Shown here in pieces: positions 164 through 14,549 of a stretch of 64,000 nt of DNA (its first letter is position 1; each line of letters begins with the position of its first letter). Position numbers and translations under genes: made by a program. Origin of the DNA: a bacterium (GTDB lineage Bacteria > RBG-13-61-14 > DATKZS01). The stretch spans positions 32,001-96,000 of the forward strand of contig CAXXFL010000003.1 in NCBI GenBank assembly GCA_963674965.2. Reading direction: 5' to 3'. The notes under the pieces are model-generated. The model saw only the letters and a program-made list of their open reading frames with translations, did not search any database and had not been told where the DNA came from.

Positions 164-1024
<861 letters not shown>

Positions 1025-1038
1025 TAGCGGGACGCCTC

Positions 1039-3693
1039 TTATCTCGTCTCGCTTCTCCTTATCCTTATTATCGGCGCCTGGGCGTATCTCATCTTTTGCT
1101 TGCCGGCCATGTATTGGTCTTCCGGCTTGGCCCTGAATACCAGTTCCAGGTTCCCGCCCAGCGTCGTCTGACCTTGGAAGATTTCCACCTCCTCCATCGA
1201 CTCGTTCTTGGAGAAATAACCTAGAAGCTCGCCGGGCTCGCCCGTAAACCCGTCTCCGTCCAGGTCGGTCCCGGCGGCCAGGTAATAGCGGCCAGGGGGA
1301 ACGTTCCAGATCGAGTAATTATAGAAGTACTTCGATCCGGTCTCGGCCCAACCCGCCGAATCGCACGTCAGGTTTCCCCTTTCGCCGGGCCGGCATTGGT
1401 CGGGATCGAAGAGGACCACGAAAACGGGGACCTTGATCTCATCGAGGAAAACCAGGTTCACCCCGTCGGTGCCTCCGTTTTCCGAACCGACGACCAACTC
1501 GCCGTAATGGGGTCCCGCGGAAACGCCGCTGGGGTCGATGGCCACCGTCAAGGTCGATCCCTTAAGCTCGTGGTGATCCACCCAGGGTATTGAATAGGAC
1601 TCGACGGTCATTCCCGCCAGTCCGCCGGGGCCAAGGTTTATAACGCTTGTCACGCCCTCCGTTTGGTCCTGGTCGAAATAAAGGACTCGCGGCTCGACCG
1701 AGAGACGAGGCCCCTCTCGAACTTTGGCTCCCGCCAGAGAAAAGCCCGCCAGCGCCGCTTTCTCGGCGTTGATGATCCCGAATCCAAGATACGGATCGCG
1801 GCCGCCTCTGTCCCTTCCGGTTATGGTCCCTTCATATTCCGGATGGGTACCGCCTATCAACCGCAAGGCGTCTCCTTGCGTAATGGGATCAAGCCCGCCG
1901 GCGGACCTATAGGCCGACAATAAAAGCGCCAGCGCCCCGGACACGTGGGGGGCCGCCGCGGAAGTGCCGCCGAAGAAATCATACCGGAAAACCACCTCCC
2001 CGGAGCGGTCGTCCGCCCCGGTCGACCGGATCGAGTTCACGAAGCCGCCTCCGCTCAGCCTTGAACTTCCGTTGCCGGGCGCCGCCACCTCGACGTGCAA
2101 GCCGTAATTGGAGTACTCGGCCCTTCTTCCCGAAATATCGGCCGCGGCGACGGTTATCACGTTTTCATAAGCCGCGGGATACCTCGGCGCCCATGACCCG
2201 TCGTTGCCGGCGGAAGCCACCACCAACGATCCGGCCTCCATGGCGTCGGCCACCGCGCTCTCGAGGAGCCTCGAATCCCCGCTTCCGCCCAGGCTTAAAT
2301 TGATAATGTCCGCCTTTATTTTTTGTCCATCAACCTCGGCCGGAGAAACGGATTCCCCGTGGCACGTGCCCAACCCGGCGGCGAACCTGATCCCCTGGGC
2401 TATGTCATAGTTCACTCCACCTTCCCGGCCCAGCACCCTGACCGGCAGGATTTTCGCGTCCCTGGCCACGCCGGACACGCCTATGACGTTGTCGGTCACC
2501 GCCGAGATAACGCCGCTGACGTAAGTCCCGTGGAATGAACTGATGGAGCCGTACAGCTTGTCCCCCGCGTCGTAGGGGTCGGGGTCCACTCCGTCTCCAT
2601 CAAGGGAGCGGCCCGGGTCCAGGACCAGGTCGTGGCCCACCACCGTCATGCCGTCTCGCAAAACGTTCGCAAAAAGGTCGGGATGGTCGTATAAAACTCC
2701 CGTGTCGACCACGGCCACGATTATCCCGGACGCGTTGTCGATCACCTCCCACGCCCGATAGGCGGCGGTCAGGTCCAGACCCCATTGGGAAGAATAATAG
2801 AAATCGTTGGCTCCCAACGAGTCGGCTCGGTAGATGTAATTCGGCTCGGCGAACTCGACCTCGGGAAGCTCGGAAAGCCGCTCGATTATTTCCAAAGTGG
2901 CGGCGTAATCGTCAAGGGAAGCCGGCGTTCCGCCGCCGCGCTCGCCGGGCAAGGAAAAAGACAAAAGCGCGGTACCATCGTCTCCATCCACTTCCACTTC
3001 GGCTTCCACCATCTTGGCGGCCCGCGAAGCCAGGGCTCGGGGGCCGTTCGCCTGGGCCTGGAATTCCGGTTTGAATTTCACCACCGCCTGTCCGGGCACG
3101 AAGTTTCTTTCCGGGTCCTCGCTCGTAAATCCAAACGCGTCCTGGGCCGAGTCGGGCCAATCGGAGGACGTGGCCAGATTGTAGATCGAGCGTCCCGAAC
3201 GGCAGCGGACGAGGAGGGAATATTCCCCCGATTCAAGGATGGTTAGGGTCTCCTTTCCATCCTCGGCCCAATCGGAGGAATCGATCGATTCTCCGTCTTT
3301 AAACAGCGATAGTTTAACGTCTCCGGACTGGCCGTCGAACTCGACCCAGGCAACGTCGCCGCTCTCGAAAAAGACGCGGTAATAATCTTCAGGGTCCAGG
3401 GCGTGGTCCACGTGACCCGCGACCGCGTCGAGCCTTCCCATCCGCTGGCCGGGCAAAAAGTCGTTGTCATGGCGCCGCCTTCCCGGTTTCTCGCCCGGGA
3501 AGTCATGGTCCAGCGAGAGATAGGAGGGAACGGCCACTCGCCCCGACAGGCTGACGTCTCCGAACCTGACGGGACCGTCATGAAGCGGGCTCCCGCAAGC
3601 CCCCCCGAAAAAAAAGAGCAAATGAAACAAAGAAAGGGAAATTTTATTTATGAGGGATAAGACTCCTCGATCCGAAAGCCACTCCTCCATCAT
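1039..3693 (-). CDS. S8 subtilisin-like serine protease with N-terminal PPC-like domain, probably exported or lipoprotein (start uncertain)
   Basis: Catalytic motifs VAVVDTG, HGTYVSG, ASAGN, GTSAAAPHVSG; hydrophobic N-terminus ending GAC. Confidence 0.9.
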   Translation of the reverse strand: MMEEWLSDRGVLSLINKISLSLFHLLFFFGGACGSPLHDGPVRFGDVSLSGRVAVPSYLSLDHDFPGEKPGRRRHDNDFLPGQRMGRLDAVAGHVDHALDPEDYYRVFFESGDVAWVEFDGQSGDVKLSLFKDGESIDSSDWAEDGKETLTILESGEYSLLVRCRSGRSIYNLATSSDWPDSAQDAFGFTSEDPERNFVPGQAVVKFKPEFQAQANGPRALASRAAKMVEAEVEVDGDDGTALLSFSLPGERGGGTPASLDDYAATLEIIERLSELPEVEFAEPNYIYRADSLGANDFYYSSQWGLDLTAAYRAWEVIDNASGIIVAVVDTGVLYDHPDLFANVLRDGMTVVGHDLVLDPGRSLDGDGVDPDPYDAGDKLYGSISSFHGTYVSGVISAVTDNVIGVSGVARDAKILPVRVLGREGGVNYDIAQGIRFAAGLGTCHGESVSPAEVDGQKIKADIINLSLGGSGDSRLLESAVADAMEAGSLVVASAGNDGSWAPRYPAAYENVITVAAADISGRRAEYSNYGLHVEVAAPGNGSSRLSGGGFVNSIRSTGADDRSGEVVFRYDFFGGTSAAAPHVSGALALLLSAYRSAGGLDPITQGDALRLIGGTHPEYEGTITGRDRGGRDPYLGFGIINAEKAALAGFSLAGAKVREGPRLSVEPRVLYFDQDQTEGVTSVINLGPGGLAGMTVESYSIPWVDHHELKGSTLTVAIDPSGVSAGPHYGELVVGSENGGTDGVNLVFLDEIKVPVFVVLFDPDQCRPGERGNLTCDSAGWAETGSKYFYNYSIWNVPPGRYYLAAGTDLDGDGFTGEPGELLGYFSKNESMEEVEIFQGQTTLGGNLELVFRAKPEDQYMAGKQKMRYAQAPIIRIRRSETR

Positions 3694-3872
3694 AATCGAG
3701 CGGCTTTTCAATTTGACTATTTCATTGAACATCGGCGAAAATTTATTCCTTTTCGGCAGTATAACATAAATCGCGATTATTGCGGACCATACCCGGGCGT
3801 GCTAAATTATTACTTGCGGTCCCGATGACGTTTGTCCGGCTACGGGAGTAGGGAAGTCGCGGCCGCCATGAC

Positions 3873-6440
3873 ATGGAGGAAGTCCCACGCGCGCCAATGA
3901 AAGTGCATCTCGATAACCGGGGCAGGAACGTCATCGTTTTTATCCTGGCTTTTTCCATGATCTCCATCTTTGTCTACTGCCTGGTGAGCACCACGTCATG
4001 GATCAACCGTTCCTTTCCGGGCTTCGTCGTCCTTAACAACCGACTTGTTCCCACCATAAGCATGCCGGGATGGGCGGGACTTCAAAACGGCGTCAGGTTC
4101 GGCGACGTGGTCCTCTCAATGGACGGGAAAGAACTCGCCGACGGCGACGAGATGAACGCGATGGCCGCCCGCAAGGAGCCGGGCGCGCCCGTTACTTACA
4201 CTCTCCGAAGGGGGAAGGACGTCCTTCAAGTCACGGTCCCCGTCTCCACCTTCACGCTGGGCGACTACCTCCTCCTGTTTCCCGGCTTCATGCTTATCGG
4301 TCTTTTCTATTACGCCGTGGGAGTGGCCGTTTTCTATATCAAACCCAACGACACCGCCGCCAGGGCCATGATGCTAAACGGCGTGGTTATCGGGATGGCC
4401 ATGGTGGTTACCCCGGAATACGCCACCAACCATACCAACCCCTTCAGTCTCTTTCTGCTTCCCCTGGCTGGACCGAGCCTGGTGACGCTCGGGCTGTATT
4501 TCCCGGAAAAGTACAAGATCGCCAAGTACGCCATGCCCGCCGCCCTGGCCAGCGGCGTCCCCATCATCATTCCCTACGCGTGGCTTTTCCACGACGTGGA
4601 AAAGTTCGTCATAGTCGACGCGATAATGCTTGTCCATATCAGCGTTAACAACGCGATCGGTCTTTTCCTGATGTTCTTCTCTTTTGTCCGCTCAAAGGAC
4701 CGGCTTACCAGGCAGAAATTCAAGATCGTCAGCTTCGGCATAGGCCTGGCCATCGTGCTGGGCGTACTGTTCATGGTTGGCCATCTCATCCTTAAAATAA
4801 TGAGCTTCTTCTGGTTTTTGCCCTTCGGGCTCCTGGTCATTCCCCTTAGCATCAGCTACGCCATCCTTAAGAACAACCTTTTCGACGTGGACGACTTCAT
4901 TAAGAAGTCGCTCGGCTGGGTCGTCTCCAGCGTCCTGGTAGTGGCGTGTTTCTCCGGCCTTAACGCCCTTGTCGGCCTGGCTCTCAGCCATATCACCGCG
5001 GACTACGTCCAAATCTCCGAGGGCATATCCGTGCTGGTGGTGGTGGTCCTTTTCCTGCCCATGCACAATATTATCAAAACCTTCATCGACAAGAGGTTCG
5101 CGGGGGAGGAATACGAGTATCAGGACGCCCTGCTCAAGTCGGCCAAGGTCTTGGCCAGGATCATCGACAAGGACAGGCTGTTTAACGACCTGCTTGACAC
5201 CATTCTCAACTCTATCAAGATCGAGCGTGGCGTTCTTCTGATCAGGGACGAGGAGACGGGGGCCTTCCACATTCAGGCCGCCCGGGACTACTCGATGGGA
5301 TTTCAACCCGGCGGGGGTTCCTTTGGCCACGACGAGGAATACAGGCCCGTCTGTCTCGAGCACGACAACCCCTTAGTCTTCCACCTCGAGGGAATAAGGA
5401 CCCCGCTTCAAATCCACCACGTCGAGGCCCCGGGCGTGTTCGGCAAGGACAGGGAACCGATGATCCTGGCCATGCGCTCCCTGGGCCTGGACCTGGTCGT
5501 GCCCATTTTCTTCGAGCACCGCATGACCGGAATCCTCGGATTGGGGCCCAAGGGAAACGGGGCGTGGTACACGAGCGTGGACGAGCACCTTTTGCAGACG
5601 CTGATGGACCAGGCCGCCGTTTCCATCGAGAACGCCGACAACATCGAGAAGATGAAACAGATGGTCAAGCTCGAGGCGGCCTACGAGGAACTCAAGAAGG
5701 TGGACGAGATGAAGGACAACATCCTCTCGATGGTGTCGCACGACTTAAGGACGCCGCTGACCGGAATCCTCGCCTACGCGTCCCTTATGAAGGAGTCCAT
5801 CGGCTCCCTGGACGAGAAGAGCCAGATCAAATACCTCACCGTCATCGTCGAGCAGGGCGAGAGGATGACAAGGCTCATCAACGACCTGCTCGATATTCAG
5901 AGGTTCGAGTTCGAGAAGGCCACCATGGAGTTCACGGATATAAACCTGCCCGACCTCGTAGCGAGCACGGTCGAGATATTCAAAGGGGCCGCCGAGGAAA
6001 AAAGCATCAAGCTCTCCAGCCAGGTTCCAAGCGAGGAAATTATGGTCCGCGGCAACTGGGACCGGCTCCAGCAGGCTTTGACTAACCTCTTGTCCAACGC
6101 CGTCAAGTTCACGCCAAAGAAGGGCATTATTCGAGTGTCCATCGAAATCCGGACCAGAAGCGGCAACAAGGCCGCCAGGGTCTCGGTTACCGACAACGGG
6201 CCGGGCGTGGATAAAAAGTATCACGCCAGTCTCTTCGACAAGTTCCAGCAGGGCGACAAGCTCATCCGCGACAAGGCCCAGGGAAGCGGCCTGGGCCTGG
6301 CCCTGGTCAGGGAAATCATCCGCGCTCACGATGGGAAAGTGGGACTGCAAAGCGAGCCGGGCAGGGGCAGCTCCTTCTATTTCCTCTTGCCAACCAAGGA
6401 AAGCACGCCAAGCGACCACAAGGAGGGAAACAATGACTAA
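3873..6440 (+). CDS. Membrane sensor histidine kinase (PDZ, multi-TM, GAF, HisKA, HATPase)
   Basis: PDZ-like GVRFGDVVLSMDG; several TM helices; H-box VSHDLRTPL; NLLSNAVKFT; DNGPG; GSGLGL. Confidence 0.92.
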   Translation: MEEVPRAPMKVHLDNRGRNVIVFILAFSMISIFVYCLVSTTSWINRSFPGFVVLNNRLVPTISMPGWAGLQNGVRFGDVVLSMDGKELADGDEMNAMAARKEPGAPVTYTLRRGKDVLQVTVPVSTFTLGDYLLLFPGFMLIGLFYYAVGVAVFYIKPNDTAARAMMLNGVVIGMAMVVTPEYATNHTNPFSLFLLPLAGPSLVTLGLYFPEKYKIAKYAMPAALASGVPIIIPYAWLFHDVEKFVIVDAIMLVHISVNNAIGLFLMFFSFVRSKDRLTRQKFKIVSFGIGLAIVLGVLFMVGHLILKIMSFFWFLPFGLLVIPLSISYAILKNNLFDVDDFIKKSLGWVVSSVLVVACFSGLNALVGLALSHITADYVQISEGISVLVVVVLFLPMHNIIKTFIDKRFAGEEYEYQDALLKSAKVLARIIDKDRLFNDLLDTILNSIKIERGVLLIRDEETGAFHIQAARDYSMGFQPGGGSFGHDEEYRPVCLEHDNPLVFHLEGIRTPLQIHHVEAPGVFGKDREPMILAMRSLGLDLVVPIFFEHRMTGILGLGPKGNGAWYTSVDEHLLQTLMDQAAVSIENADNIEKMKQMVKLEAAYEELKKVDEMKDNILSMVSHDLRTPLTGILAYASLMKESIGSLDEKSQIKYLTVIVEQGERMTRLINDLLDIQRFEFEKATMEFTDINLPDLVASTVEIFKGAAEEKSIKLSSQVPSEEIMVRGNWDRLQQALTNLLSNAVKFTPKKGIIRVSIEIRTRSGNKAARVSVTDNGPGVDKKYHASLFDKFQQGDKLIRDKAQGSGLGLALVREIIRAHDGKVGLQSEPGRGSSFYFLLPTKESTPSDHKEGNND

Positions 6441-6804
6441 GAAGGTGCTCATCGCCGACGACGACGACCTCTTAAGGGACGCCATCAGGCTTAGCATTCA
6501 AAAAGACGGCTACGAGATACACGAGGCCAGGGACGGGATCGAGGCCCTGAACAAGGCGGCGGAGGTAATACCGGACCTTATCATCCTCGACGTCATGATG
6601 CCGGGGATGATCGGCTACAATGTCTGCCAGAAATTGAAAAGCAATCCCGCGACTAAGGATATCTTCGTCATGTACCTGACGGCCAGGGGAAACGAGCTGA
6701 CCGACGGCGCGGTCAAGGAAAGCGGTGGAGACGGTTTCTTCGCCAAGCCCTTCTTGCCCACCGAGCTGCGGAAAAAGGTGCGGGATATCCTGGAGTCCAG
6801 ATAA
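6433..6804 (+). CDS. Single-domain response regulator
   Basis: KKVLIADDD, LDVMMPG, YLTA, KPF; RBS AGGAGG; overlaps the kinase stop. Confidence 0.92.
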   Translation: MTKKVLIADDDDLLRDAIRLSIQKDGYEIHEARDGIEALNKAAEVIPDLIILDVMMPGMIGYNVCQKLKSNPATKDIFVMYLTARGNELTDGAVKESGGDGFFAKPFLPTELRKKVRDILESR

Positions 6805-6821: not shown

Positions 6822-7895
6822 TCAGGCGCTCTTGATACGGGCCTCCCCCGTCTGGCCGTTCTTTTTTTGCGGAAGGTTCGCGTTAAGCACGTCGTAACTG
6901 ATAATTCCACGGTCATAGAGGGACTCGAGCTGGCGGCCCAGTCCCTGCATCCCTTCGGAAACCCCGGTGGCGATGGTCGTCTCGAGCTGGTGGACCTTGT
7001 TTTCCCGGATCAGGTTCCTCACCGCCTTGTTGGCCACCAGTATCTCCGAGGCCAGCACCCTGCCCTCCACGTCCACCCGGGGCAGGAGTCTCTGGTTGAT
7101 TATGCCCTGCAGGCACGAGGCCAACTGGTACCGGGTCTGGGCCTGTTGCCTGGAGGGGAACACGTCCACAATCCGGTTTATAGTCGAGGCCGAGTCGTTG
7201 GTGTGGATGGTGGCCAATACCAGGTGGCCCGTCTCGGCGGCCAGAAGGGCGGCCGCTATGGTATCCAGCTCGCGAAGCTCCCCAATCCCTATTACGTCGG
7301 GGTCCTGCCTCAGCGCGTGGATAAGGGCCGCGGGGAAGTCCTTTACGTCCATGCCCACCTCCTGCTGGATCACCAGGCTCCGGACGGGACGATGAACGTA
7401 CTCGATGGGGTCCTCGATGGTTATGACCTTGCAACGCCTCTCCCGGTTCACCATGTCCAGGATGGCGTTAAAGGTCGTGGTCTTGCCCGAGCCGGTCGAG
7501 CCGGTGATGAGGATCAAGCCGTTAGGACGGCGGGCCAGGTCCTCTACCACCTCGGGAATCCCAAGCTCCTCGAAGCTGGGGATGCGGGTTATGCCAAGGC
7601 GGATCGAGGCTTCCATCGCCCCCAGCCTGCGGTAAAGGCTCACCCGGAAATAGCCCAGGCCCTCGACCGATCTCGAGAAGCAAAGCTTCCAGTCCCGGGA
7701 AAAGGACTCGCGCTGGACGTCGTCGAGAAGGGGCGCCATCATGGACTCCACGTCGCCGACCTTGAGGGGCTCGGTCCCCTCCAGGCTCAGTATCTCTCCG
7801 TTGACCCGGATAACCGGGGGCACCCCGGCGGCAAGGTGAAGGTCAGAGGCCTCCCGCGCCCGCGCCGCCCCTATCAAGCCGTTAAGCGTCGTCAT
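6822..7895 (-). CDS. pilT: PilT/PilU-family type IV pilus retraction ATPase
   Basis: ASDLHL, Walker A GSTGSGKTT, TIEDPIEY, ALRQDPD, GELRE, ETGHLV, AVRNLIRE; start coupled by TAATG. Confidence 0.9.
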   Translation of the reverse strand: MTTLNGLIGAARAREASDLHLAAGVPPVIRVNGEILSLEGTEPLKVGDVESMMAPLLDDVQRESFSRDWKLCFSRSVEGLGYFRVSLYRRLGAMEASIRLGITRIPSFEELGIPEVVEDLARRPNGLILITGSTGSGKTTTFNAILDMVNRERRCKVITIEDPIEYVHRPVRSLVIQQEVGMDVKDFPAALIHALRQDPDVIGIGELRELDTIAAALLAAETGHLVLATIHTNDSASTINRIVDVFPSRQQAQTRYQLASCLQGIINQRLLPRVDVEGRVLASEILVANKAVRNLIRENKVHQLETTIATGVSEGMQGLGRQLESLYDRGIISYDVLNANLPQKKNGQTGEARIKSA

Positions 7896-8920
7896 TACAA
7901 CTTCCTCCATTCGTATAGCGGCCAGTATATGCGAGCAATGCGCATCCAATTGTCGTATTGGGACAAATAACCAAGACTGTAATTGCCCCTTTGCTCAAAA
8001 TATACCTCCTGGAGAAATGCGTACTCGCCCTCCGGGACCACGGTGGGAGCCAGCTTGCAGGTGGTTATATCTCTTATGATAGCGGGGACATATGGCTGAG
8101 ATTCTTCCGGCGCTATTTCATCGTTAATATAGAGCACCCCACTATCCACCTCGACCACGTCGCCCTCGAGAGCGATAATCCTGTAAATGTTGTGAGCTCT
8201 ATATAAAAGAGCGCCCCGCTCCAATTTGTCCCGGCCGAAATCGACGGGAACGGAGAAAACCCTGTCCCCGTCGCGGACGTCCATAAAATAATGAGCGTCG
8301 TTAATGACCAGGAACCGGTTCGGGAATAAAGAGGAGATGAGAAAGTCAGCGGCCAAGTAAGGCAGCGATATAACCATGACCGCCGAGGCCGCGCTCATAA
8401 ACGCAACGTTAGCCTTGGCCGAGTGGCCTCTATCCTCGAGATGCAGCCTGGTCGCCTCGAACCCGGCGGCCAAGAGCGTAAAAAGAACCATAACCGGATA
8501 GCCGGGAATGGGAACGTGAAATACCATCTGCGCAAGGCCCGCCGCCACGAGAAGGGACGTGGCCAGGAGGAACGCCAGGCCTTCCTTTGGCCTGCCATGC
8601 AAAAAGAACCACGGGCCGAAAAGCATGCCCGAGGCGGCGACCCGAAATGGAGGCATATATTGCTCGAGTCTTTCCCGGAAACCCTCTTGGCCATCCCCGC
8701 GGACGTTCCCTATCGCATCCTCGATTCTTCTGACGGCTCTCGCCCGCGTCCCCAGGCTCGCGGCCACCGACTTTTTCCTCTCGAGCAGGTCCGTGGACCC
8801 CGAGCCGCCCACCTTGGGATAGGTCAGCGGGGCCGGTGGGGGCTCGCTCATCGAGGCCCCGCAGGCCATGCACTCCTCCATGCCCGGCATCACGTGGGCG
8901 TCGCACCTGGGGCACTTCAT
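7895..8920 (-). CDS. Zinc-ribbon membrane protein with C-terminal degenerate signal peptidase I (S26)-like domain
   Basis: CPRC..CMAC; about 4 TM segments; DGDRV, YRIIALEGDVVEV.SGVLYIND, VVPEGEY resemble S26 boxes but lack catalytic Ser/Lys. Confidence 0.65.
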   Translation of the reverse strand: MKCPRCDAHVMPGMEECMACGASMSEPPPAPLTYPKVGGSGSTDLLERKKSVAASLGTRARAVRRIEDAIGNVRGDGQEGFRERLEQYMPPFRVAASGMLFGPWFFLHGRPKEGLAFLLATSLLVAAGLAQMVFHVPIPGYPVMVLFTLLAAGFEATRLHLEDRGHSAKANVAFMSAASAVMVISLPYLAADFLISSLFPNRFLVINDAHYFMDVRDGDRVFSVPVDFGRDKLERGALLYRAHNIYRIIALEGDVVEVDSGVLYINDEIAPEESQPYVPAIIRDITTCKLAPTVVPEGEYAFLQEVYFEQRGNYSLGYLSQYDNWMRIARIYWPLYEWRKL

Positions 8921-8923
8921 GAG

Positions 8924-9133
8924 TTACCTCTTGGCCGCCTTGACAAAGGGAGCTATCCTGATCCGGCTTTCCTTCTCGTAATACTCGTCCGTGGTGGCCG
9001 TGGCCTTGATCGGTCCAAGGAACTCACGGAATAACTCGCGCGCGTCAAGGCATCTGGGTCCTTTGATTCCCTTGACCCAAACCTTGACCTCGCCCTCCTT
9101 GGATATCTCGATGTCCAGTACTTCCCGTTCCAT
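8924..9133 (-). CDS. DUF2997-like small protein
   Basis: IEISKEGEVKVWVKGIKGPRCLDA...LG...TDEYY pattern; RBS AAGGAG. Confidence 0.8.
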   Translation of the reverse strand: MEREVLDIEISKEGEVKVWVKGIKGPRCLDARELFREFLGPIKATATTDEYYEKESRIRIAPFVKAAKR

Positions 9134-9165
9134 GACGCGACTCCTTCCATTCGTCCTTGTCAAAG

Positions 9166-9948
9166 CTAATCCCTGGTTCCGGTCAGGCTCCGGATTCTTT
9201 TCCAGACGCTCGTTTTGGCCAGGTCGTTTTTCAATTTTTTAGCCTCGTCCAGGTCCGGCCTGACGGCGAGGGCGTCCTCCACGTGGGTCAGGGCGGACTC
9301 CCGTTTGCCCGCGGCGTAAAAAGCCTGCGCCAGCCTGAGATGATTTATGGCCTCCCTCGGCTCGAGATCGACCGCCTTGGCCAGGTATTTTACCGCCTCG
9401 CGGTGGCGTCCGTGCAGGATCAGCATCTCCCCCGCCCGCCTCATGATCCACCACCTGGAGACGCCGCCCACCTCGAGGGACTTGTTAACGCAGTGCTCGG
9501 CGCTCGGAAGCTTGCCGGAAATTACGAGGGCCTCGGCCCGGCAGAGCCAGATAAGCCAGTGGTCCTTTTTCACCCTCTGGGCCGTGTCCAGAAACCCCAT
9601 GGCCTTTTCGACCATTCCCATCCGGGCCAGGGCCGAGGCCCGGGCAGCGAAGCAGGGTCCTGAACCGGGGCAGTGCTCGAGGCCCCTCGCGGCCCAAAGC
9701 GCCGCCTCATCGTGCTCGCCCATGTCGAGGAGGGCCAGGCATTGGCCCACCCAGGCCTCCTCGAGCTGGAGGTCCTGGGAAAGAGCCCTCGAGTAATACT
9801 TGAGGGCCGCCTCGCTCGCGCCCGCGTGCATGGCCCGGGTCGCCCGCTCGAGATAAAAAACGTGGTCGCGGACCTTCACGTCGTCAGTCGGAAGAGCGTC
9901 CGGCTTCCCGACTCGCTCGTCCAGTTCCAAATATTCTCCGCGTCCCAT
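9166..9948 (-). CDS. Tetratricopeptide repeat protein
   Basis: Repeated TPR units (ALKYYSRAL, AVKYLAKAVDLEP, ALAVRPD); RBS GGAGG. Confidence 0.85.
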   Translation of the reverse strand: MGRGEYLELDERVGKPDALPTDDVKVRDHVFYLERATRAMHAGASEAALKYYSRALSQDLQLEEAWVGQCLALLDMGEHDEAALWAARGLEHCPGSGPCFAARASALARMGMVEKAMGFLDTAQRVKKDHWLIWLCRAEALVISGKLPSAEHCVNKSLEVGGVSRWWIMRRAGEMLILHGRHREAVKYLAKAVDLEPREAINHLRLAQAFYAAGKRESALTHVEDALAVRPDLDEAKKLKNDLAKTSVWKRIRSLTGTRD

Positions 9949-9983
9949 TGCTTATTCCTCCAATAGTCCCGCCCCGAAGTCGG

Positions 9984-10451
9984 TCAGCTCATCCTGTGCA
10001 TCTTGATCTTGATACGGCCGTCCTCGTCCACTTCCTCTTGCCCTGTTTCATAGCCGCGCCTCTCCAGCTCGACCATCATCTTCTGGTAGGCGTACTGTTG
10101 GCGGACCCTTCCTATGACGCGCGCGCCCTCCTCCTCGAGCTGGGACTTGGTCATGTTGGCGCCCTTTACGTGCACGGCGAAGCGGCCGCGGGGGTCCTTG
10201 TAAAACTCGACCTGGACCCCGTCGCGCTGAAGGGTGACCCGCTCGTCCTCGGCCAGGGCCTCGGCTATAACGCGCGACCGTTCCATGGCGACCTCGACCT
10301 CGTTCATCGACTCGAGGTCGCGAGACTGGAAAGCCCCCCTCGCCGCCCGCCGATAGCCAAGGGCGCCGGCGGCGGCCGCGGCCGCGGCGCAAAAGGCCGG
10401 CCATCCCCCGGCCGCCATCACCAGCGGCGTGACCACGAATATACAAGACAT
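9984..10451 (-). CDS. DUF1257 (Ycf35-like) protein with N-terminal Ala-rich hydrophobic segment
   Basis: C-terminal RQQYAYQKMMVEL..RGY...EEVDEDGRIKIKM pattern; adjacent to Ycf46-type ATPase. Confidence 0.75.
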   Translation of the reverse strand: MSCIFVVTPLVMAAGGWPAFCAAAAAAAGALGYRRAARGAFQSRDLESMNEVEVAMERSRVIAEALAEDERVTLQRDGVQVEFYKDPRGRFAVHVKGANMTKSQLEEEGARVIGRVRQQYAYQKMMVELERRGYETGQEEVDEDGRIKIKMHRMS

Positions 10452-10466
10452 GGCTTTTCCTCCCTC

Positions 10467-12020
10467 TTAAAACTCGATATTGCGGGCCGCGGGGACCTGA
10501 GACCCCTCCTCCTCCGGCGTGGCCCTTCGAGCCCGGCCGGCGGCCCATTTACGAAGACCGTCTATCTCCTCCTCCATGGTGCGAGAAAGAGGGACCGTCT
10601 CGAGCACGGCCTCCAAGAGGTGGCCCTGCGAAAGGGGCTCGCCCCGCTCGTAGGAGGCGTACATGCCCGAGACCACCACCTCCTCGATCTCGGCCCCCGA
10701 GAACCCCCGAGTCCTCTCGCTCAGGGACTTGACGTCGTAAGCGGCGGGGTCCATGCCCCGCCGGACAAGGTGAATGCGGAATATCTCCGAGCGCTCGATC
10801 GCCTGGGGAAGGTCAACGAAAAATATCTCGTCAAATCGGCCCTTCCTTAAAAACTCCGCCGGAAGCTCGGAGATGTCGTTGGCCGTGGCCATCACGAACA
10901 CCGGCGCCGTCTTCTCCTGAAGCCAGGTGATAAAACCGCCGAACACCCTAGCCGCCGTGCCCCCGTCGGAGGAGCCCGAGCTCCTGGTGCCGGCGAAGGC
11001 CTTCTCCACCTCGTCCACCCACATGATGGCGGGCGCCACCTGCTCGGCCACCTCGATGGCCCTCCGCAGGTTGTCCTCCGAGCTGCCGACCAGGCTCGAG
11101 AAAACGCGGCCCACGTCCAGCCTTAACAGAGGCATCTGCCACCTGCCCGCCAGGGCCTTGGCCGCCAGGCTCTTGCCGCATCCCTGCACGCCGATAAGCA
11201 GCACGCCCTTCGGATATGGAAGCCCCAGCTTTCTCGCGCCCTCGTCGAAACCCAGGCGCCGCCGGTCCATCCATTCCTTCAGGGTGCGAAGGCCGCCCAC
11301 GTCCGACAGGCCGAAATTGGAGTCGTAATACTCGAGGGCGCCCGAGCGCTTGATGAGTTTTTCCTTTTCCCGGATCACCTTCTTCACGTCCTCAGTGGTG
11401 AGTCTTCCCCCCTCGACCAGGATTTTGGAAAGAACGTTCTCGGCCTCGTCCCTGGTGAGTCCCATGGCCGCCGAGGTCAGACGCTCCCTGACCCGGGCCT
11501 CGACTTTTATGTTGAGGTCGGTCCTCGAGTTGACCTCCCTGGCCGTGCGGTCGATCAACTCGCCCAGCTCCTCCCGCTCGGGAAGACCGAACTCGACCGC
11601 GGTCATTTCCTTCTCCAGCTCGACCGGGGTCTCCAGGCGGGGCGACACCAGCACCAGGCTTTTATAAGAAGTCTTTAAATAGGACCCAACCTCCCTGAGA
11701 CGCCGGGCCACGACGGGATTGCCCAGGAAGGGGTGGAAGTCGAGCAGGACGAAGATGGCCGGCTCCATGAACTTCACCACGTGGTCGAGAGCGGCCAGCG
11801 GGTCCTGGGTCGAGTTGTCGCGGGCGTTTTTCGATTCCATGGCCGTTCCCGGCGCGTGGAAACCCATGCTCGAGGACCACAGAAGAAGGCGCTTTTCCCT
11901 GGACTTGGCTATCTGGTTCAGGACCTCGATCACCCTCGTTTCCTCGTGGCTGATGACGGCTATGAGAGGGTACCTGGCCCTGATCAGGACCTCCAGTTCA
12001 CGCGCCGCGTTTTTGGACAT
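10467..12020 (-). CDS. Ycf46-type AAA+ ATPase (inactive N-terminal AAA-like domain plus active AAA domain)
   Basis: [23 protein letters not shown], Walker A GVQGCGKS, Walker [30 protein letters not shown]. Confidence 0.9.
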
Positions 12021-13080
12021 CTTCCATCCCCCTTATCTCCTCGAACATCTGAAGCAAACCCGGCGTCAGGTGTGGAATAATCACCCTGCCCGCCTCGTCG
12101 ATTATGAGTTCCCCCGTTTCTCCCAGCCAGGCCCTTATCGAGTCGGAGGCCATTCCTCTTTCCTTTATCGTCTCGTTCTTCTGGTAGGGCGCCTCGAGGT
12201 CCAGTCCCGCGTCCCGGGCGGCCTCGACCAGTTTCTTCACGTCCAGCGGGTCCCGCCTTTGCCTGAGTTCCCTGCAATAGGAAGTCCGGGACTTAGGCGG
12301 CGGGACATAGTTGTCGAGAATATGGAACCTGAGATAGGGAAAGCGCTCGGCCATCAGCCTCACCGCGGGAAAGCCGCAGCATTTGAGGTGCCCCGGCAGT
12401 AAAAGGTGCCTCACTATCACCCTCAGCCCGGCGTCCACGGCGCGCTCGATATTTCGAGTCACCGTTTCCATGTAATTCTTTACCCCGCTTATCCAGCCCG
12501 CGCAGTCGTCGTTGCCGAAGTGAACGTCCGCCACTACCACGTCGGCGGCGTCGGCCGCGGCGTCGGCCACGAACGATCCATAGTACATATTGGAGTTCCA
12601 CACCCGGGGCCGGACGTTTATCGCGCCGAAAAGGGCAAGGGCGGCGGGAAGGTTCGTCGCCGGCTCGCCGCCCACGGCGCAAAGGCTCCTGGCGGCGGAA
12701 AGGCCCGGGTCGAGAAAAAGAGGATGCCCCTCGAGCGGACGGGATTGGTCCTTGCGATTTTCCTTGCCCGAGTTCCTGGAGCAAACTTTATCGGCCAGGT
12801 AACAGAAGCGACAGGAGAGGTTACAACCGGTGAAGAAGACCTCGTAGGCCGGGTTAAGGGCGCGCTCCTCGTTCAAGAGCAACCCGGCGTAAAACACTTC
12901 GCCAAAGGCGGAGGCCCCGCATTTTCCAACGGCCCCGGCCAGACGATTCACGCCGCATTCCCATGGACAGAGGCGACAATTTTCGAGTTCCTTTAAAGAG
13001 GAGAGAACCAGCGACCTTATCCTCGAGTCCTCGACGTGTTCCAAGAGCCCATGACCCTGAAAAGCTCGCGCCGCTCTCAT
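11998..13080 (-). CDS. PflX-like radical SAM protein
   Basis: CRLCPWECGVNR..G..GKCG, CNLSCRFC, GGEP, VWNSNMY, VRHLLLPGH..CC; RBS AAGGAG before ATG 13080. Confidence 0.85.
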   Translation of the reverse strand: MRAARAFQGHGLLEHVEDSRIRSLVLSSLKELENCRLCPWECGVNRLAGAVGKCGASAFGEVFYAGLLLNEERALNPAYEVFFTGCNLSCRFCYLADKVCSRNSGKENRKDQSRPLEGHPLFLDPGLSAARSLCAVGGEPATNLPAALALFGAINVRPRVWNSNMYYGSFVADAAADAADVVVADVHFGNDDCAGWISGVKNYMETVTRNIERAVDAGLRVIVRHLLLPGHLKCCGFPAVRLMAERFPYLRFHILDNYVPPPKSRTSYCRELRQRRDPLDVKKLVEAARDAGLDLEAPYQKNETIKERGMASDSIRAWLGETGELIIDEAGRVIIPHLTPGLLQMFEEIRGMEDVQKRGA

Positions 13081-13212
13081 GTTTATCTCCTTTCCGTCAG
13101 TTCCCCCCTCGTGACATTCTCCCTCCATCCATTCAGTTTGATGATTCCCGATTCCGCGGGGATTCAAGATTTCATCCCCATATGGCTCGACTTCAAACAT
13201 AACGTTCATAAA

Positions 13213-13238
13213 AACGAAGGAAAAGAAATAAAGTTTCA
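13213..13238 (-). promoter_or_regulatory. Putative ECF sigma promoter of the radical SAM/AAA operon
   Basis: TGAAAC-N16-CGTT on the minus strand, 133 nt before the first ATG and just after the upstream terminator. Confidence 0.55.
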
Positions 13239-13254: not shown

Positions 13255-13288
13255 AAAAAAAAAGCCTTCACGGGATTCATGAAGGCTT
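13255..13288 (-). terminator. Intrinsic terminator of the ftsY-lipoprotein unit
   Basis: AAGCCTTCA-tgaatcccg-TGAAGGCTT followed by a long T run on the minus strand. Confidence 0.8.
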
Positions 13289-13322: not shown

Positions 13323-14549
13323 TCAAGGGCCGGGGGGGACCGCGATATCAAGGACCGATCTTCTGGTGGAGGTTTGGCCGTCGCTCGAGATTATCTCGAT
13401 ATCTATGACAAGTTCTCCCGGCGCCGTGCCCCCGTAAAAAGCCGCGTTAAAAAGCGTCCCCTGGAAGGCGTCGTCAAAAAAAAGCGCGGTGCTCCCGTTG
13501 CTGACGAAAGTGACGCCCGGCGACGGGGCGCTCTCGATGGTAATGGTCACGTCGGCCAGTTCTCCTTCCGGGTCCCTGAAGGAGTACTGAAGAGGGTTGG
13601 GAATGGTCAAATAATAAACCGTGGCCCCGAAAGGGCCCTCGATTACCGGCGCCGTGTTCTTGGTCCAGTTGACGCCCGCGGGCGCGAGAGATGTGACAAG
13701 GTCCGGATTCTCCACGTGGAGGGCGAAGCGGCCCGAGGCGACCTCAACCAGGTAAACCGACTGGTCGGTACCTTTCACCCAGGCCTGCCCCAGGCTTTTA
13801 TCTCTGGCCCGACAAAAATCGAGCGGGCCGGGAGAAGACACCAGTCGTATTTCAGACCCGTCTTCGCGCAGGAAAAGCCCGCGGGTCCCGGCCACGAGAA
13901 GGTCGCCGTTGTCGAAAACCTGCACGTCCATGGCGCCCGGTCCGAAGTCGGCGATTTCCTCGGCCGCGCCGTCCTCCCCATACAAGGGTTTGGCCATAAG
14001 CTTTCCGCAGCCGTAAAGTATCCAGGCGCTTGTCCCTCCCGGGGCGATGTCGAAGGCGACCGGCCTCGAGCACCCCTCGACGGGCGAATCCAGGTCGCCG
14101 GTCAAGTCCAGCTCGGAGGTGAACAGCACGTCGGCCTCCTCGATAAGGTTCACGCCGGTGGTGGTGTCCCCGCCGAGCGCGTATAACTTGCCGTCCGCCC
14201 ATCCAAGGCGAAGGTCGATGAGGGAACCCGACTTTATTTCGTCCAGCCTCGTCTTGGGATACATCATCCCGTCCTCGAGGTTGAGTTCCAAGACCTCGTA
14301 ATCCTCGGTCACCACGTAGGCCGCCAGCGCGTCCCGCTTAAGAAGGAAATGTATGAACTTGAGGTCCAGATCGACCTCCTCGGCGAACTCGAGCCTGGTC
14401 CTCGATCCATAGGCGTCGGTCTCGAAAATTCTTCCGCCGGCCACCAGGTAATAGACCCTTTGGGCGAATTTGTATTCCGAGTCCGTTTCCACGCACGCGA
14501 CGGCCGCCGCGAGGAGAGCGAAAAGAAATATCAAGCGCGAGGTTTTCAT
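13323..14549 (-). CDS. Hypothetical lipoprotein, probably beta-propeller plus Ig-like C-terminus
   Basis: MKTSRLIFLFALLAAAVAC lipobox; beta-rich repeats; NTAPVI..P linker; RBS GGAGG. Confidence 0.7.
   Translation of the reverse strand: MKTSRLIFLFALLAAAVACVETDSEYKFAQRVYYLVAGGRIFETDAYGSRTRLEFAEEVDLDLKFIHFLLKRDALAAYVVTEDYEVLELNLEDGMMYPKTRLDEIKSGSLIDLRLGWADGKLYALGGDTTTGVNLIEEADVLFTSELDLTGDLDSPVEGCSRPVAFDIAPGGTSAWILYGCGKLMAKPLYGEDGAAEEIADFGPGAMDVQVFDNGDLLVAGTRGLFLREDGSEIRLVSSPGPLDFCRARDKSLGQAWVKGTDQSVYLVEVASGRFALHVENPDLVTSLAPAGVNWTKNTAPVIEGPFGATVYYLTIPNPLQYSFRDPEGELADVTITIESAPSPGVTFVSNGSTALFFDDAFQGTLFNAAFYGGTAPGELVIDIEIISSDGQTSTRRSVLDIAVPPGP

Follow-up and report, generated by a model that had tools for sequence, protein, structure and literature searches.

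A compact seven-gene operon

We analysed a stretch of 64,000 nucleotides (nt) from a bacterium of the GTDB lineage RBG-13-61-14 (DATKZS01; assembly GCA_963674965.2, contig CAXXFL010000003.1, positions 32,001 to 96,000 of the forward strand), below called the window. On its minus strand seven open reading frames form one tightly packed array from 13080 to 6822 (Table 1). They code for a radical SAM enzyme, a Ycf46-type AAA+ ATPase, a DUF1257 (Ycf35) variant, a TPR protein, a DUF2997 protein, a membrane protein with a peptidase S26-like domain and a PilT-family ATPase. The operon is built from known protein families, matches none of the characterised systems considered here, as a preliminary description made from the sequence had surmised, and apparently encodes an undescribed multi-component membrane system. 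The co-orientation and the intergenic gaps given there (-23, 15, 35, 32, 3 and -1 nt in transcription order) were confirmed exactly. A Shine-Dalgarno-like stretch is present at each of the seven starts. In a profile hidden Markov model search with each gene all seven products passed a Pfam cut-off (radical SAM, AAA, DUF1257, TPR, DUF2997, peptidase S26 and T2SSE). The whole locus lies within one contig, and two runs of a single sample, which may be the one that the genome came from, show zero differences.

Table 1. Coordinates of the operon genes and associated features in the window
Feature	Position	Strand	Size and basis
Radical SAM enzyme	13080-11998	-	360 aa; PF04055 over cut-off
DUF2997-like module, C-terminal on the radical SAM enzyme	12025..12114	-	residues ~323-352; hhalign
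Ycf46-type AAA+ ATPase	12020-10467	-	517 aa; PF00004
DUF1257 (Ycf35) variant	10451-9984	-	155 aa; PF06868 over cut-off
TPR protein, candidate adaptor	9948-9166	-	260 aa; Pfam cut-off, N-terminal motif
DUF2997 protein, candidate scaffold subunit and radical target	9133-8924	-	69 aa; PF11211 over cut-off
Zn-ribbon/transmembrane/S26-like membrane protein	8920-7895	-	341 aa; PF10502 over cut-off
PilT-family ATPase	7895-6822	-	357 aa; TIGR01420 over cut-off
Intrinsic terminator of the upstream lipoprotein-like gene	13262..13288	-	11-bp stem and U-tract
Candidate ECF-type promoter TGAAAC-N16-CGT, weak	13214..13238	-	motif scan

Conservation and host range

Searched against 50%-identity representatives, a profile of the DUF1257 variant retrieved 194 clusters (E<=1e-10). 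In the genome collection, matches to a single degenerate pattern were confirmed 231 times; locus counts refer to the best 80 of these 231. They belong to Planctomycetota (53), Verrucomicrobiota (13) and Armatimonadota (3), six are unlabelled, and five with doubtful labels (Actinomycetota 3, Bacteroidota 1, Acidobacteriota 1) were excluded from the host range. Four of the five nest among rows of the Planctomycetota-Verrucomicrobiota-Chlamydiota (PVC) group in the PilT tree; the fifth, L064, is not in the tree. The contigs at L066, L067, L073 and L076 bear the labels Chitinophaga, Actinomycetota, Sulfotelmatobacter and Bifidobacterium and fall among Planctomycetota or Verrucomicrobiota; either the label or the bin is questionable. 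Of the carriers, Planctomicrobium sp. SH527 is in culture and its genome is complete.

The complete set of seven genes was present in 56 of the 80 loci, or in 57 with a 114-aa fragment of PilT in L064 included. Singly, the AAA+ ATPase and DUF2997 were found in 76 loci each, the membrane protein in 73, TPR in 68, PilT in 67 and the radical SAM enzyme in 66. Most of the 23 incomplete loci end at a contig edge; about eight with room for all genes are split, inverted or decayed. The main order, radical SAM-AAA+-DUF1257-DUF2997-S26-TPR-PilT, occurs in 51 loci. The order of the window was seen in three (the window, L007 and the metagenome contig L006 with 24% identity), a circular permutation beginning at DUF1257 in three others, and two orders are singletons. 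Thus, the partners named in the preliminary description recur in three main gene orders far beyond this genome, and pilT and the S26-like gene, whose membership had been left to such a survey, are conserved with the others.

Where the operon is incomplete, the TPR orthologue was recovered in 5/5 genomes, three times outside the locus and in two of these three adjoining pilT. In a partly different set of such genomes the radical SAM gene was recovered in 3/5. Unlinked components keep one gene copy each. The evolutionary distances of the components co-vary (rho 0.60-0.87) and their trees group by lineage, as is expected for an inherited unit. The seven genes very probably constitute one conserved functional unit.

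Searches of 12 other genomes (87-97% complete) from the window's own small phylum gave no match to the DUF1257 variant or to the TPR protein, an absence compatible with gain by transfer as well as with repeated loss. All 13 genomes of the phylum possess a lone Ycf46-type ATPase (L218-L230; in the window genome G000:C7:102368-103876, L229) with no DUF partners within 1.5 kb. No description of the operon was found in the open full-text literature, where DUF1257 or DUF2997 is mentioned in five papers and DUF2997 by itself in three; subscription journals and supplements were outside this scope, and comparative-genomics supplements could list the neighbourhood.

The Ycf46-type AAA+ ATPase

PF00004 matches the ATPase at residues 273-403 only, i.e. 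there is one active AAA domain and a degenerate N-terminal region. No curated Ycf46 model matched; the name, which we presume to be correct, comes from annotation and from the DUF partners. Over its full length the protein matches phrog_8638 (E 1e-143) and homologues on viruses (70 loci) and plasmids (63 records). Walker A and B motifs and the arginine finger (RKGR) are intact in 73/73 operon ATPases, and 34 of the 35 system rows taken into the tree form a clade (SH support 99), with the long-branch L006 outside. Vps4/CdvC with ESCRT-III and Cdc48/p97 are similar in that a classic-clade AAA+ is encoded beside small, probably membrane-bound proteins, yet the NCBIfam matches are weak and below cut-off, and the partners here would be alpha/beta domains instead of ESCRT-III helical hairpins. 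In addition, pore loop 1 is non-aromatic (SLVG in the window; Leu 76, Tyr 1, Phe 1 and gap 1 of 79 rows). Therefore, p97/Vps4-style threading is not supported.

A C-terminal tail, R-x-x-E-hydrophobic, is conserved in 63/73 operon ATPases, and the TPR protein has a conserved N-terminal R-F-x-x-L-E motif. The latter (window 9939-9948; R-F-x-x-L-E-F in relatives) resembles the ATPase tail (10467-10484; R-K-I-E-L). Judged by this likeness, the two may compete for one site.

The small DUF1257 and DUF2997 proteins

PF06868 matches the DUF1257 variant over residues 107-149 only. What precedes is unusual: a hydrophobic N-terminal window was present in 110/115 variants and the first 28 residues were free of charge in 104/115, whereas 0/8 classical DUF1257 proteins had an uncharged hydrophobic N-terminus and 8/8 were charged there. 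This hydrophobic end of about 30 residues appears together with the genes for TPR, membrane protein and PilT and makes the variant a candidate for a membrane-tethered scaffold subunit. An N-terminal MSH motif characterises Ycf35 (PMC13060386). It is not found here: in the 115 variants A, V and C dominate position 3, and H is outside the six commonest residues. The possibility that the variant is a type IV prepilin was rejected as the prepilin motif occurs in 0/115.

A first, shallow model of DUF1257 had no Foldseek match in the PDB at E<=0.001. The later model (predicted local distance difference test score, pLDDT, 85; residues 2-13 unplaced) is alpha/beta. The best VIA Z scores were 5.4 and 6.2, the latter with root-mean-square deviations of 3.0-3.4 over 81-84 aligned residues (adaptin appendage domains), and BFVD yielded one unnamed match (E 5.7e-4, TM-score 0.36). 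These fold comparisons were uninformative. The nearest ESM Atlas clusters agree with the DUF1257 and DUF2997 assignments. In DUF2997 the residues G14, G22, G25, C28 and G40 are invariant (71/71). A possible likeness to a heavy-metal-associated half-domain found no support in the PDB and was dropped. The two small proteins are fused at L087:10629-11408 and L208:6284-6799.

The radical SAM enzyme and its DUF2997-like module

All 67 operon radical SAM enzymes contain CxxxCxxC; the window enzyme has an extra N-terminal CxxCxxxC. The closest solved structure is the pyruvate formate-lyase activating enzyme (PDB 3c8f, E 1.7e-11), and 52/60 operon enzymes match TIGR02493 at E<=0.001. With the glycyl-radical activases PflA and NrdG the enzyme shares this closest structure, the NCBIfam matches, CxxxCxxC and GGEP. 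It differs in that the window enzyme reaches 16-20 bits against NCBIfam activase cut-offs of 131-232, far below each, and in carrying a DUF2997-like module. By motif and profile it is in a glycyl-radical-activase-like branch of the radical SAM enzymes, with hydrogen abstraction from a protein glycine as the putative reaction; presumably the label PflX-like applies. The C-terminal motif of glycyl radical enzymes (RVxGY) was present in none of the long open reading frames of the system loci or of eight viral loci; hence the usual substrate of an activase is not encoded in these loci.

In most relatives a small gene directly follows the radical SAM gene. Its family is a paralogue of DUF2997 (84%; controls <1%) and lacks the Cys motif (GxxGxxC in 0/64). 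In the window the module is fused to the C-terminus of the enzyme (73% with the small-gene family by hhalign, E 3e-5). It accompanies the enzyme in 65/68 radical SAM loci (59 separate, 3 fused, 3 weakly fused), and a stand-alone paralogue of the enzyme in the window genome had no match to it. By profile comparison the operon has an eighth part, the DUF2997-like module, here fused to the enzyme. The module is found on two radical SAM lineages, the second being viral (see below), which suggests that the enzyme docks on a scaffold of DUF1257 and DUF2997 and modifies it.

An activase-like enzyme adjoining small proteins with conserved Gly and Cys could also be read as modification with export. The enzyme would mature DUF2997 or DUF1257, e.g. 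by a cross-link as in ribosomally synthesised and post-translationally modified peptides (RiPPs), and PilT, TPR and membrane protein would export or display the product. PilT/GspE-family motors do drive secretion. However, we detected no active peptidase, transporter, RiPP recognition element (RRE) or SPASM domain, conservation of the small proteins, which are folded domains, extends over their whole length, and the core occurs on viral contigs without any export genes. We consider this explanation quite improbable.

The core module on viruses and plasmids and in cyanobacteria

Among the 70 viral loci with a Ycf46 homologue DUF2997 was present in 16, a radical SAM gene in eight and both in six; TPR, S26 and PilT were present in none, and no virus carried the DUF1257 variant, i.e. 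the extended operon was not seen on viruses. The viral radical SAM enzymes (eight loci, L146, L150, L156, L169, L178, L191, L199 and L200; seven distinct) are NrdG-like, form a lineage separate from the operon enzyme and have no NrdD motif nearby. For the pooled tails of the seven distinct enzymes the match is 92% with the module, 88% with DUF2997 and <4% with four control profiles. Radical SAM or PilT profiles found 28 viral loci with no operon partner except one weak TPR match. On plasmids and phages the radical SAM profile gave four and one weak matches, respectively; the one inspected, L117, was unrelated. This record (NZ_OY725726.1), filed as a 70-kb plasmid, contains a full ATP synthase operon and alr and is probably a chromosomal piece. 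Three IMG/VR contigs, L127, L129 and L130, have adjacent PilB-like and PilT-like genes.

A second, divergent Ycf46-like cluster exists in the window genome at L087:6862-12521 (G000:C6:310862-316521). It codes for a 386-aa membrane protein, a vWA protein, an AAA+ ATPase, the DUF1257-DUF2997 fusion mentioned above and a radical SAM enzyme bearing the module N-terminally (89%), and it adjoins an ISL3 transposase and convergent SNF2-helicase and PLD genes.

The preliminary description had Ycf46 travelling with DUF1257 and DUF2997 in cyanobacteria. The sources consulted do not bear this out: in them a DUF2997-ycf35 pair adjoins the gene of the Fe-S ferredoxin Fed7 (PMC4284462), whereas ycf46 belongs to another, stress-induced operon of three genes and of unknown function (PMC7496141, 10.1101/2025.07.21.665879). 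All loci of our set in which Ycf46, DUF1257 and DUF2997 occurred together were non-cyanobacterial or unlabelled (L002 and viral contigs). Cyanobacterial and plastid Ycf46 (slr0374; Synpcc7942_0417) and DUF2997-ycf35-fed7 share with the operon the AAA+, DUF1257 and DUF2997 families and an Fe-S protein adjoining the small genes. They differ in that the operon has a radical SAM enzyme for the ferredoxin, a hydrophobic DUF1257 N-terminus without MSH, the additional TPR protein, pseudo-peptidase membrane protein and PilT, and non-photosynthetic hosts. Taken together, the operon enzyme, the viral NrdG-like enzymes and Fed7 are three contexts in which the small proteins are paired with an Fe-S protein.

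In terms of gene content the older core is radical SAM enzyme, Ycf46, DUF1257 and DUF2997, and the add-on is membrane protein, TPR protein, PilT and the hydrophobic DUF1257 end. The earlier view of an extended core stands for TPR, membrane protein and PilT and fails for the radical SAM enzyme, which belongs to the older core and is present on viral contigs, too.

Is the operon an anti-phage or conflict system? The receptor would sense an attack on the envelope, and PilT would retract or disable a pilus receptor, or the core would arrest growth. The core is mobile, the second core lies beside transposase, helicase and PLD genes, the operon is patchy in its own phylum, and ycf46 expression in cyanobacteria tracks growth arrest (10.1101/2025.07.21.665879). 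Yet PADLOC 2023 gave only generic AAA (IetA) and weak mad3/mad8 P-loop matches, with none for five of the proteins, no toxic effector domain was recognised, the window flanks are housekeeping genes (ftsY, rpoD, dnaG), and the 30 commonest neighbour clusters include no defence family. The co-varying distances and lineage-grouped trees also speak for an inherited unit, and a defence function appears unlikely.

Alternatively, a stress core and a receptor-TPR-PilT module could be co-regulated in one operon and be physically independent. That the core exists without the extension and that the operon is split in some genomes, with TPR and PilT moving as a block, agrees with this. On the other hand, TPR is located between DUF1257 and DUF2997 in the window, so the modules interleave; the extension goes with the hydrophobic DUF1257 variant and is absent from all 70 viral Ycf46 loci; and one copy of each gene is kept when they are unlinked. 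Independence of the two parts is in our opinion improbable.

The membrane protein, the TPR protein and PilT

A scan for transmembrane (TM) segments predicted about three TM helices in the membrane protein, whose most constant parts are a PPRA motif and the TM region. Its S26 domain scored 28.6 bits with TIGR02227 (cut-off 47); PDB matches were SpsB and SipA (4n31, 4k8w). The column of the catalytic Lys held D 33, G 14, N 4, E 3, A 2, Y 1 and two gaps in 59 rows and no K, and the SMxP[TA] box was present in 0/58 membrane-protein S26 domains. The Ser column was set aside because it aligned onto the TM motif. By its residues this is an S26-like domain without the catalytic Ser-Lys dyad and not an active signal peptidase I, which bears out the earlier designation; two ordinary signal peptidases are encoded elsewhere in the window genome. 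We infer that the S26 domain would face the outside and the Zn ribbon the inside. SipA/LepA of Streptococcus pyogenes pilus loci have the same membrane-anchored signal-peptidase fold without Ser/Lys. Unlike these loci, the operon has no sortase or sortase-type pilin, the protein possesses an extra Zn ribbon and several TM helices, and the hosts are diderm; the loss of activity was probably independent of that in SipA. A short membrane protein without S26 domain occurs alone at L009:4507-5094 and in tandem with a full copy at L012:10477-12117.

The window PilT passes TIGR01420 (393 vs 319.1 bits), and in 5/5 test genomes its best match is the operon copy. A single clade unites the 67 operon PilTs and excludes 31 other paralogues (SH 99; 100/99 on 15 vs 31 rows); three fragments of <280 aa were dropped and one L008 pilT outside the operon was counted as housekeeping. 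As in type IVa PilT the Walker, Asp and His boxes are intact and the arginines R84 and R99 are kept. In contrast, the clade has QQE for QRE and W-x-L-C-x-S for ELDFS as well as the private invariant residues C72 and S74. An AIRNLIRE-type helix (AVRNLIRE in the window) follows the strict pattern in 42/67 operon PilTs and in 3/31 other paralogues; motif counts leave out short envelope matches. A reported AlphaFold3 model places this helix at the PilC interface (10.1101/2025.10.30.685630). Because the PilC-facing helix is kept, PilT may bind PilC and act on the type IV pilus of the host. Near relatives of the clade include PilTs encoded beside pilC. PilM was over cut-off in 15/15 operon genomes and 3/14 controls, a comparison limited by controls which did not include operon-less relatives. 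No T2SSF match was found among the seven genes or as a recurring neighbour, and the operon contains no pilB, pilC or pilin.

The same components might constitute a self-contained membrane-remodelling or filament machine independent of type IV pili. In it the Zn-ribbon/TM protein would be the platform of PilT, the pseudo-peptidase would chaperone DUF1257 in a SipA-like manner, and the motors would build and dismantle a non-canonical polymer. A dedicated PilT clade with private invariant residues, the membrane protein or TPR gene directly upstream of pilT (gap <=100 nt) in 60/67 and a DUF1257 hydrophobic N-terminus that arises together with the extension are in line with this. So is SipA as a top PDB match (E 6.6e-11), since SipA, devoid of Ser/Lys, is essential for pilus assembly (PMC4049620). 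Opposed to it are the missing prepilin motif in all 115 DUF1257 variants, the retained PilC-facing helix of PilT, an S26 domain that is absent in L009 and, less clearly, a list of fold matches that includes nothing pilin-like (best Z 6.2, TBP/KA1-like domains). We regard such a machine as rather unlikely, if less so than a defence function.

A possible radical-set switch

Tentatively, we propose a switch at the cytoplasmic face of the inner membrane which is set by radical chemistry, reset by ATP and coupled to a private pilus-retraction motor; we hold this to be possible rather than probable. DUF1257 and DUF2997 would form a small scaffold, which the hydrophobic DUF1257 N-terminus would hold at the membrane. 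Via its own DUF2997-like module the radical SAM enzyme would dock on this scaffold and modify it, the candidate site being the Gly22/Gly25/Cys28 loop of DUF2997 where a glycyl or thiyl radical or a Cys-Gly cross-link might be formed. The Ycf46 ATPase would then remodel or disassemble the scaffold. The Zn-ribbon/TM protein with its peptide-binding pseudo-peptidase would be the envelope receptor, and the TPR protein would join receptor and scaffold to the dedicated PilT, which would dock on the host PilC platform and retract or block type IV pili on demand. The model starts from the gene set and its conservation, the PilT and AAA+ clades, the intact ATPase and Fe-S motifs and the missing dyad. 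The hydrophobic DUF1257 N-terminus, the module on two radical SAM lineages and the DUF1257-DUF2997 fusions add to these observations. All physical contacts, the substrate, the topology, the PilC link and the trigger we infer from them.

Several findings weigh against this switch. On the side of the core, the DUF2997-like matches are short (about 30 columns), and the radical SAM gene was not found in 2/5 checked draft genomes. Glycyl radicals are destroyed by oxygen, and an aerobic life is probable for many carriers. GxxGxxC of DUF2997 is kept in viral loci without a nearby radical SAM gene; hence the motif may be structural or a metal ligand. In the predicted DUF1257 model the confident helix 17-31 may lie against the domain instead of spanning the membrane. 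On the side of the receptor and motor, the Zn ribbon was recognised in 53/69 membrane proteins and was below the Pfam cut-off in the window, and the L009 protein does without an S26 domain. The strict AIRNLIRE pattern is missed by 25/67 operon PilTs, the sister grouping with pilC-linked PilTs has a support of only 92/91, and PilC/GspF, present in 50/50 operon genomes and 13/14 controls, does not discriminate.

A wider version, for which we see a still smaller chance, is that the core as such is a radical-programmed protein switch: activase-type radical SAM enzymes would have been recruited at least twice through the DUF2997-like tag and would write a glycyl or thiyl radical or a cross-link into a protein of 69 residues, the AAA+ ATPase would reset the switch, and in this operon it would be wired to the private PilT that controls type IV pili.

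ycf35 and ycf46 are long-standing unknowns of cyanobacteria and red-lineage plastids and are carried by viruses and plasmids. For experiments the operon names concrete points: the class of the enzyme, its docking tag, the invariant Gly/Cys loop of DUF2997 and the dedicated PilT. If the radical-set switch were true, an activase-type radical SAM enzyme would act on a non-metabolic protein and type IV pili would have a second way of control, in at least 231 genome matches. In the wider version glycyl-radical-type chemistry would gain a role in signalling, and plastid ycf35 and ycf46 would be explained.

Regulatory signals and neighbouring genes

The strong upstream terminator of the preliminary description is borne out by a hairpin at 13288-13262 of -17.6 kcal/mol (z = -5.47), which none of 200 shuffled sequences equalled in stability. 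By its predicted fold it insulates the operon from the upstream gene. Of the proposed extracytoplasmic function (ECF)-like promoter the motif itself stands, TGAAAC-N16-CGT 133 nt 5' of the radical SAM ATG; its conservation does not. We take TGAAAC/CGT to be the consensus of the Bacillus sigma-W/M ECF type. The genome carries 39 such sites compared with 19-33 for other spacings, and within the 450 nt preceding whichever of the seven genes comes first a looser form was found ahead of 6/64 homologous operons (window counted) and on the reverse strand in 1/64, a scan that misses promoters ahead of the sigma gene in Verrucomicrobia. Due to these numbers the promoter is weak evidence. An ECF promoter as a family-wide feature was rejected, as was a genome-wide regulon since the 39 sites form no coherent set. 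Verrucomicrobia-type loci (L019, L020, L037, L041 and others) have an ECF-sigma-like gene 5' of the operon (a cluster of 16 loci). At 13 loci of this type a small protein also precedes the operon, and at 13 a small membrane protein is inserted between AAA+ and DUF1257.

Directly upstream, beyond the terminator, a 408-aa lipoprotein-like protein is encoded at 13323-14549 (-); it had no Pfam or NCBIfam match and was absent from all homologous loci examined. Convergent with pilT are the genes of a PDZ-TM-GAF histidine kinase and a single-domain response regulator at 3873-6804 (+); the stop codons are 17 nt apart with no clear terminator between them. Further along, 1039-3732 (-) codes for an 897-aa subtilase with a fervidolysin-type prodomain. 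A 149-aa reading frame at 504-953 (+) presumably resembles the maturase region at the C-terminus of a group II intron reverse transcriptase.

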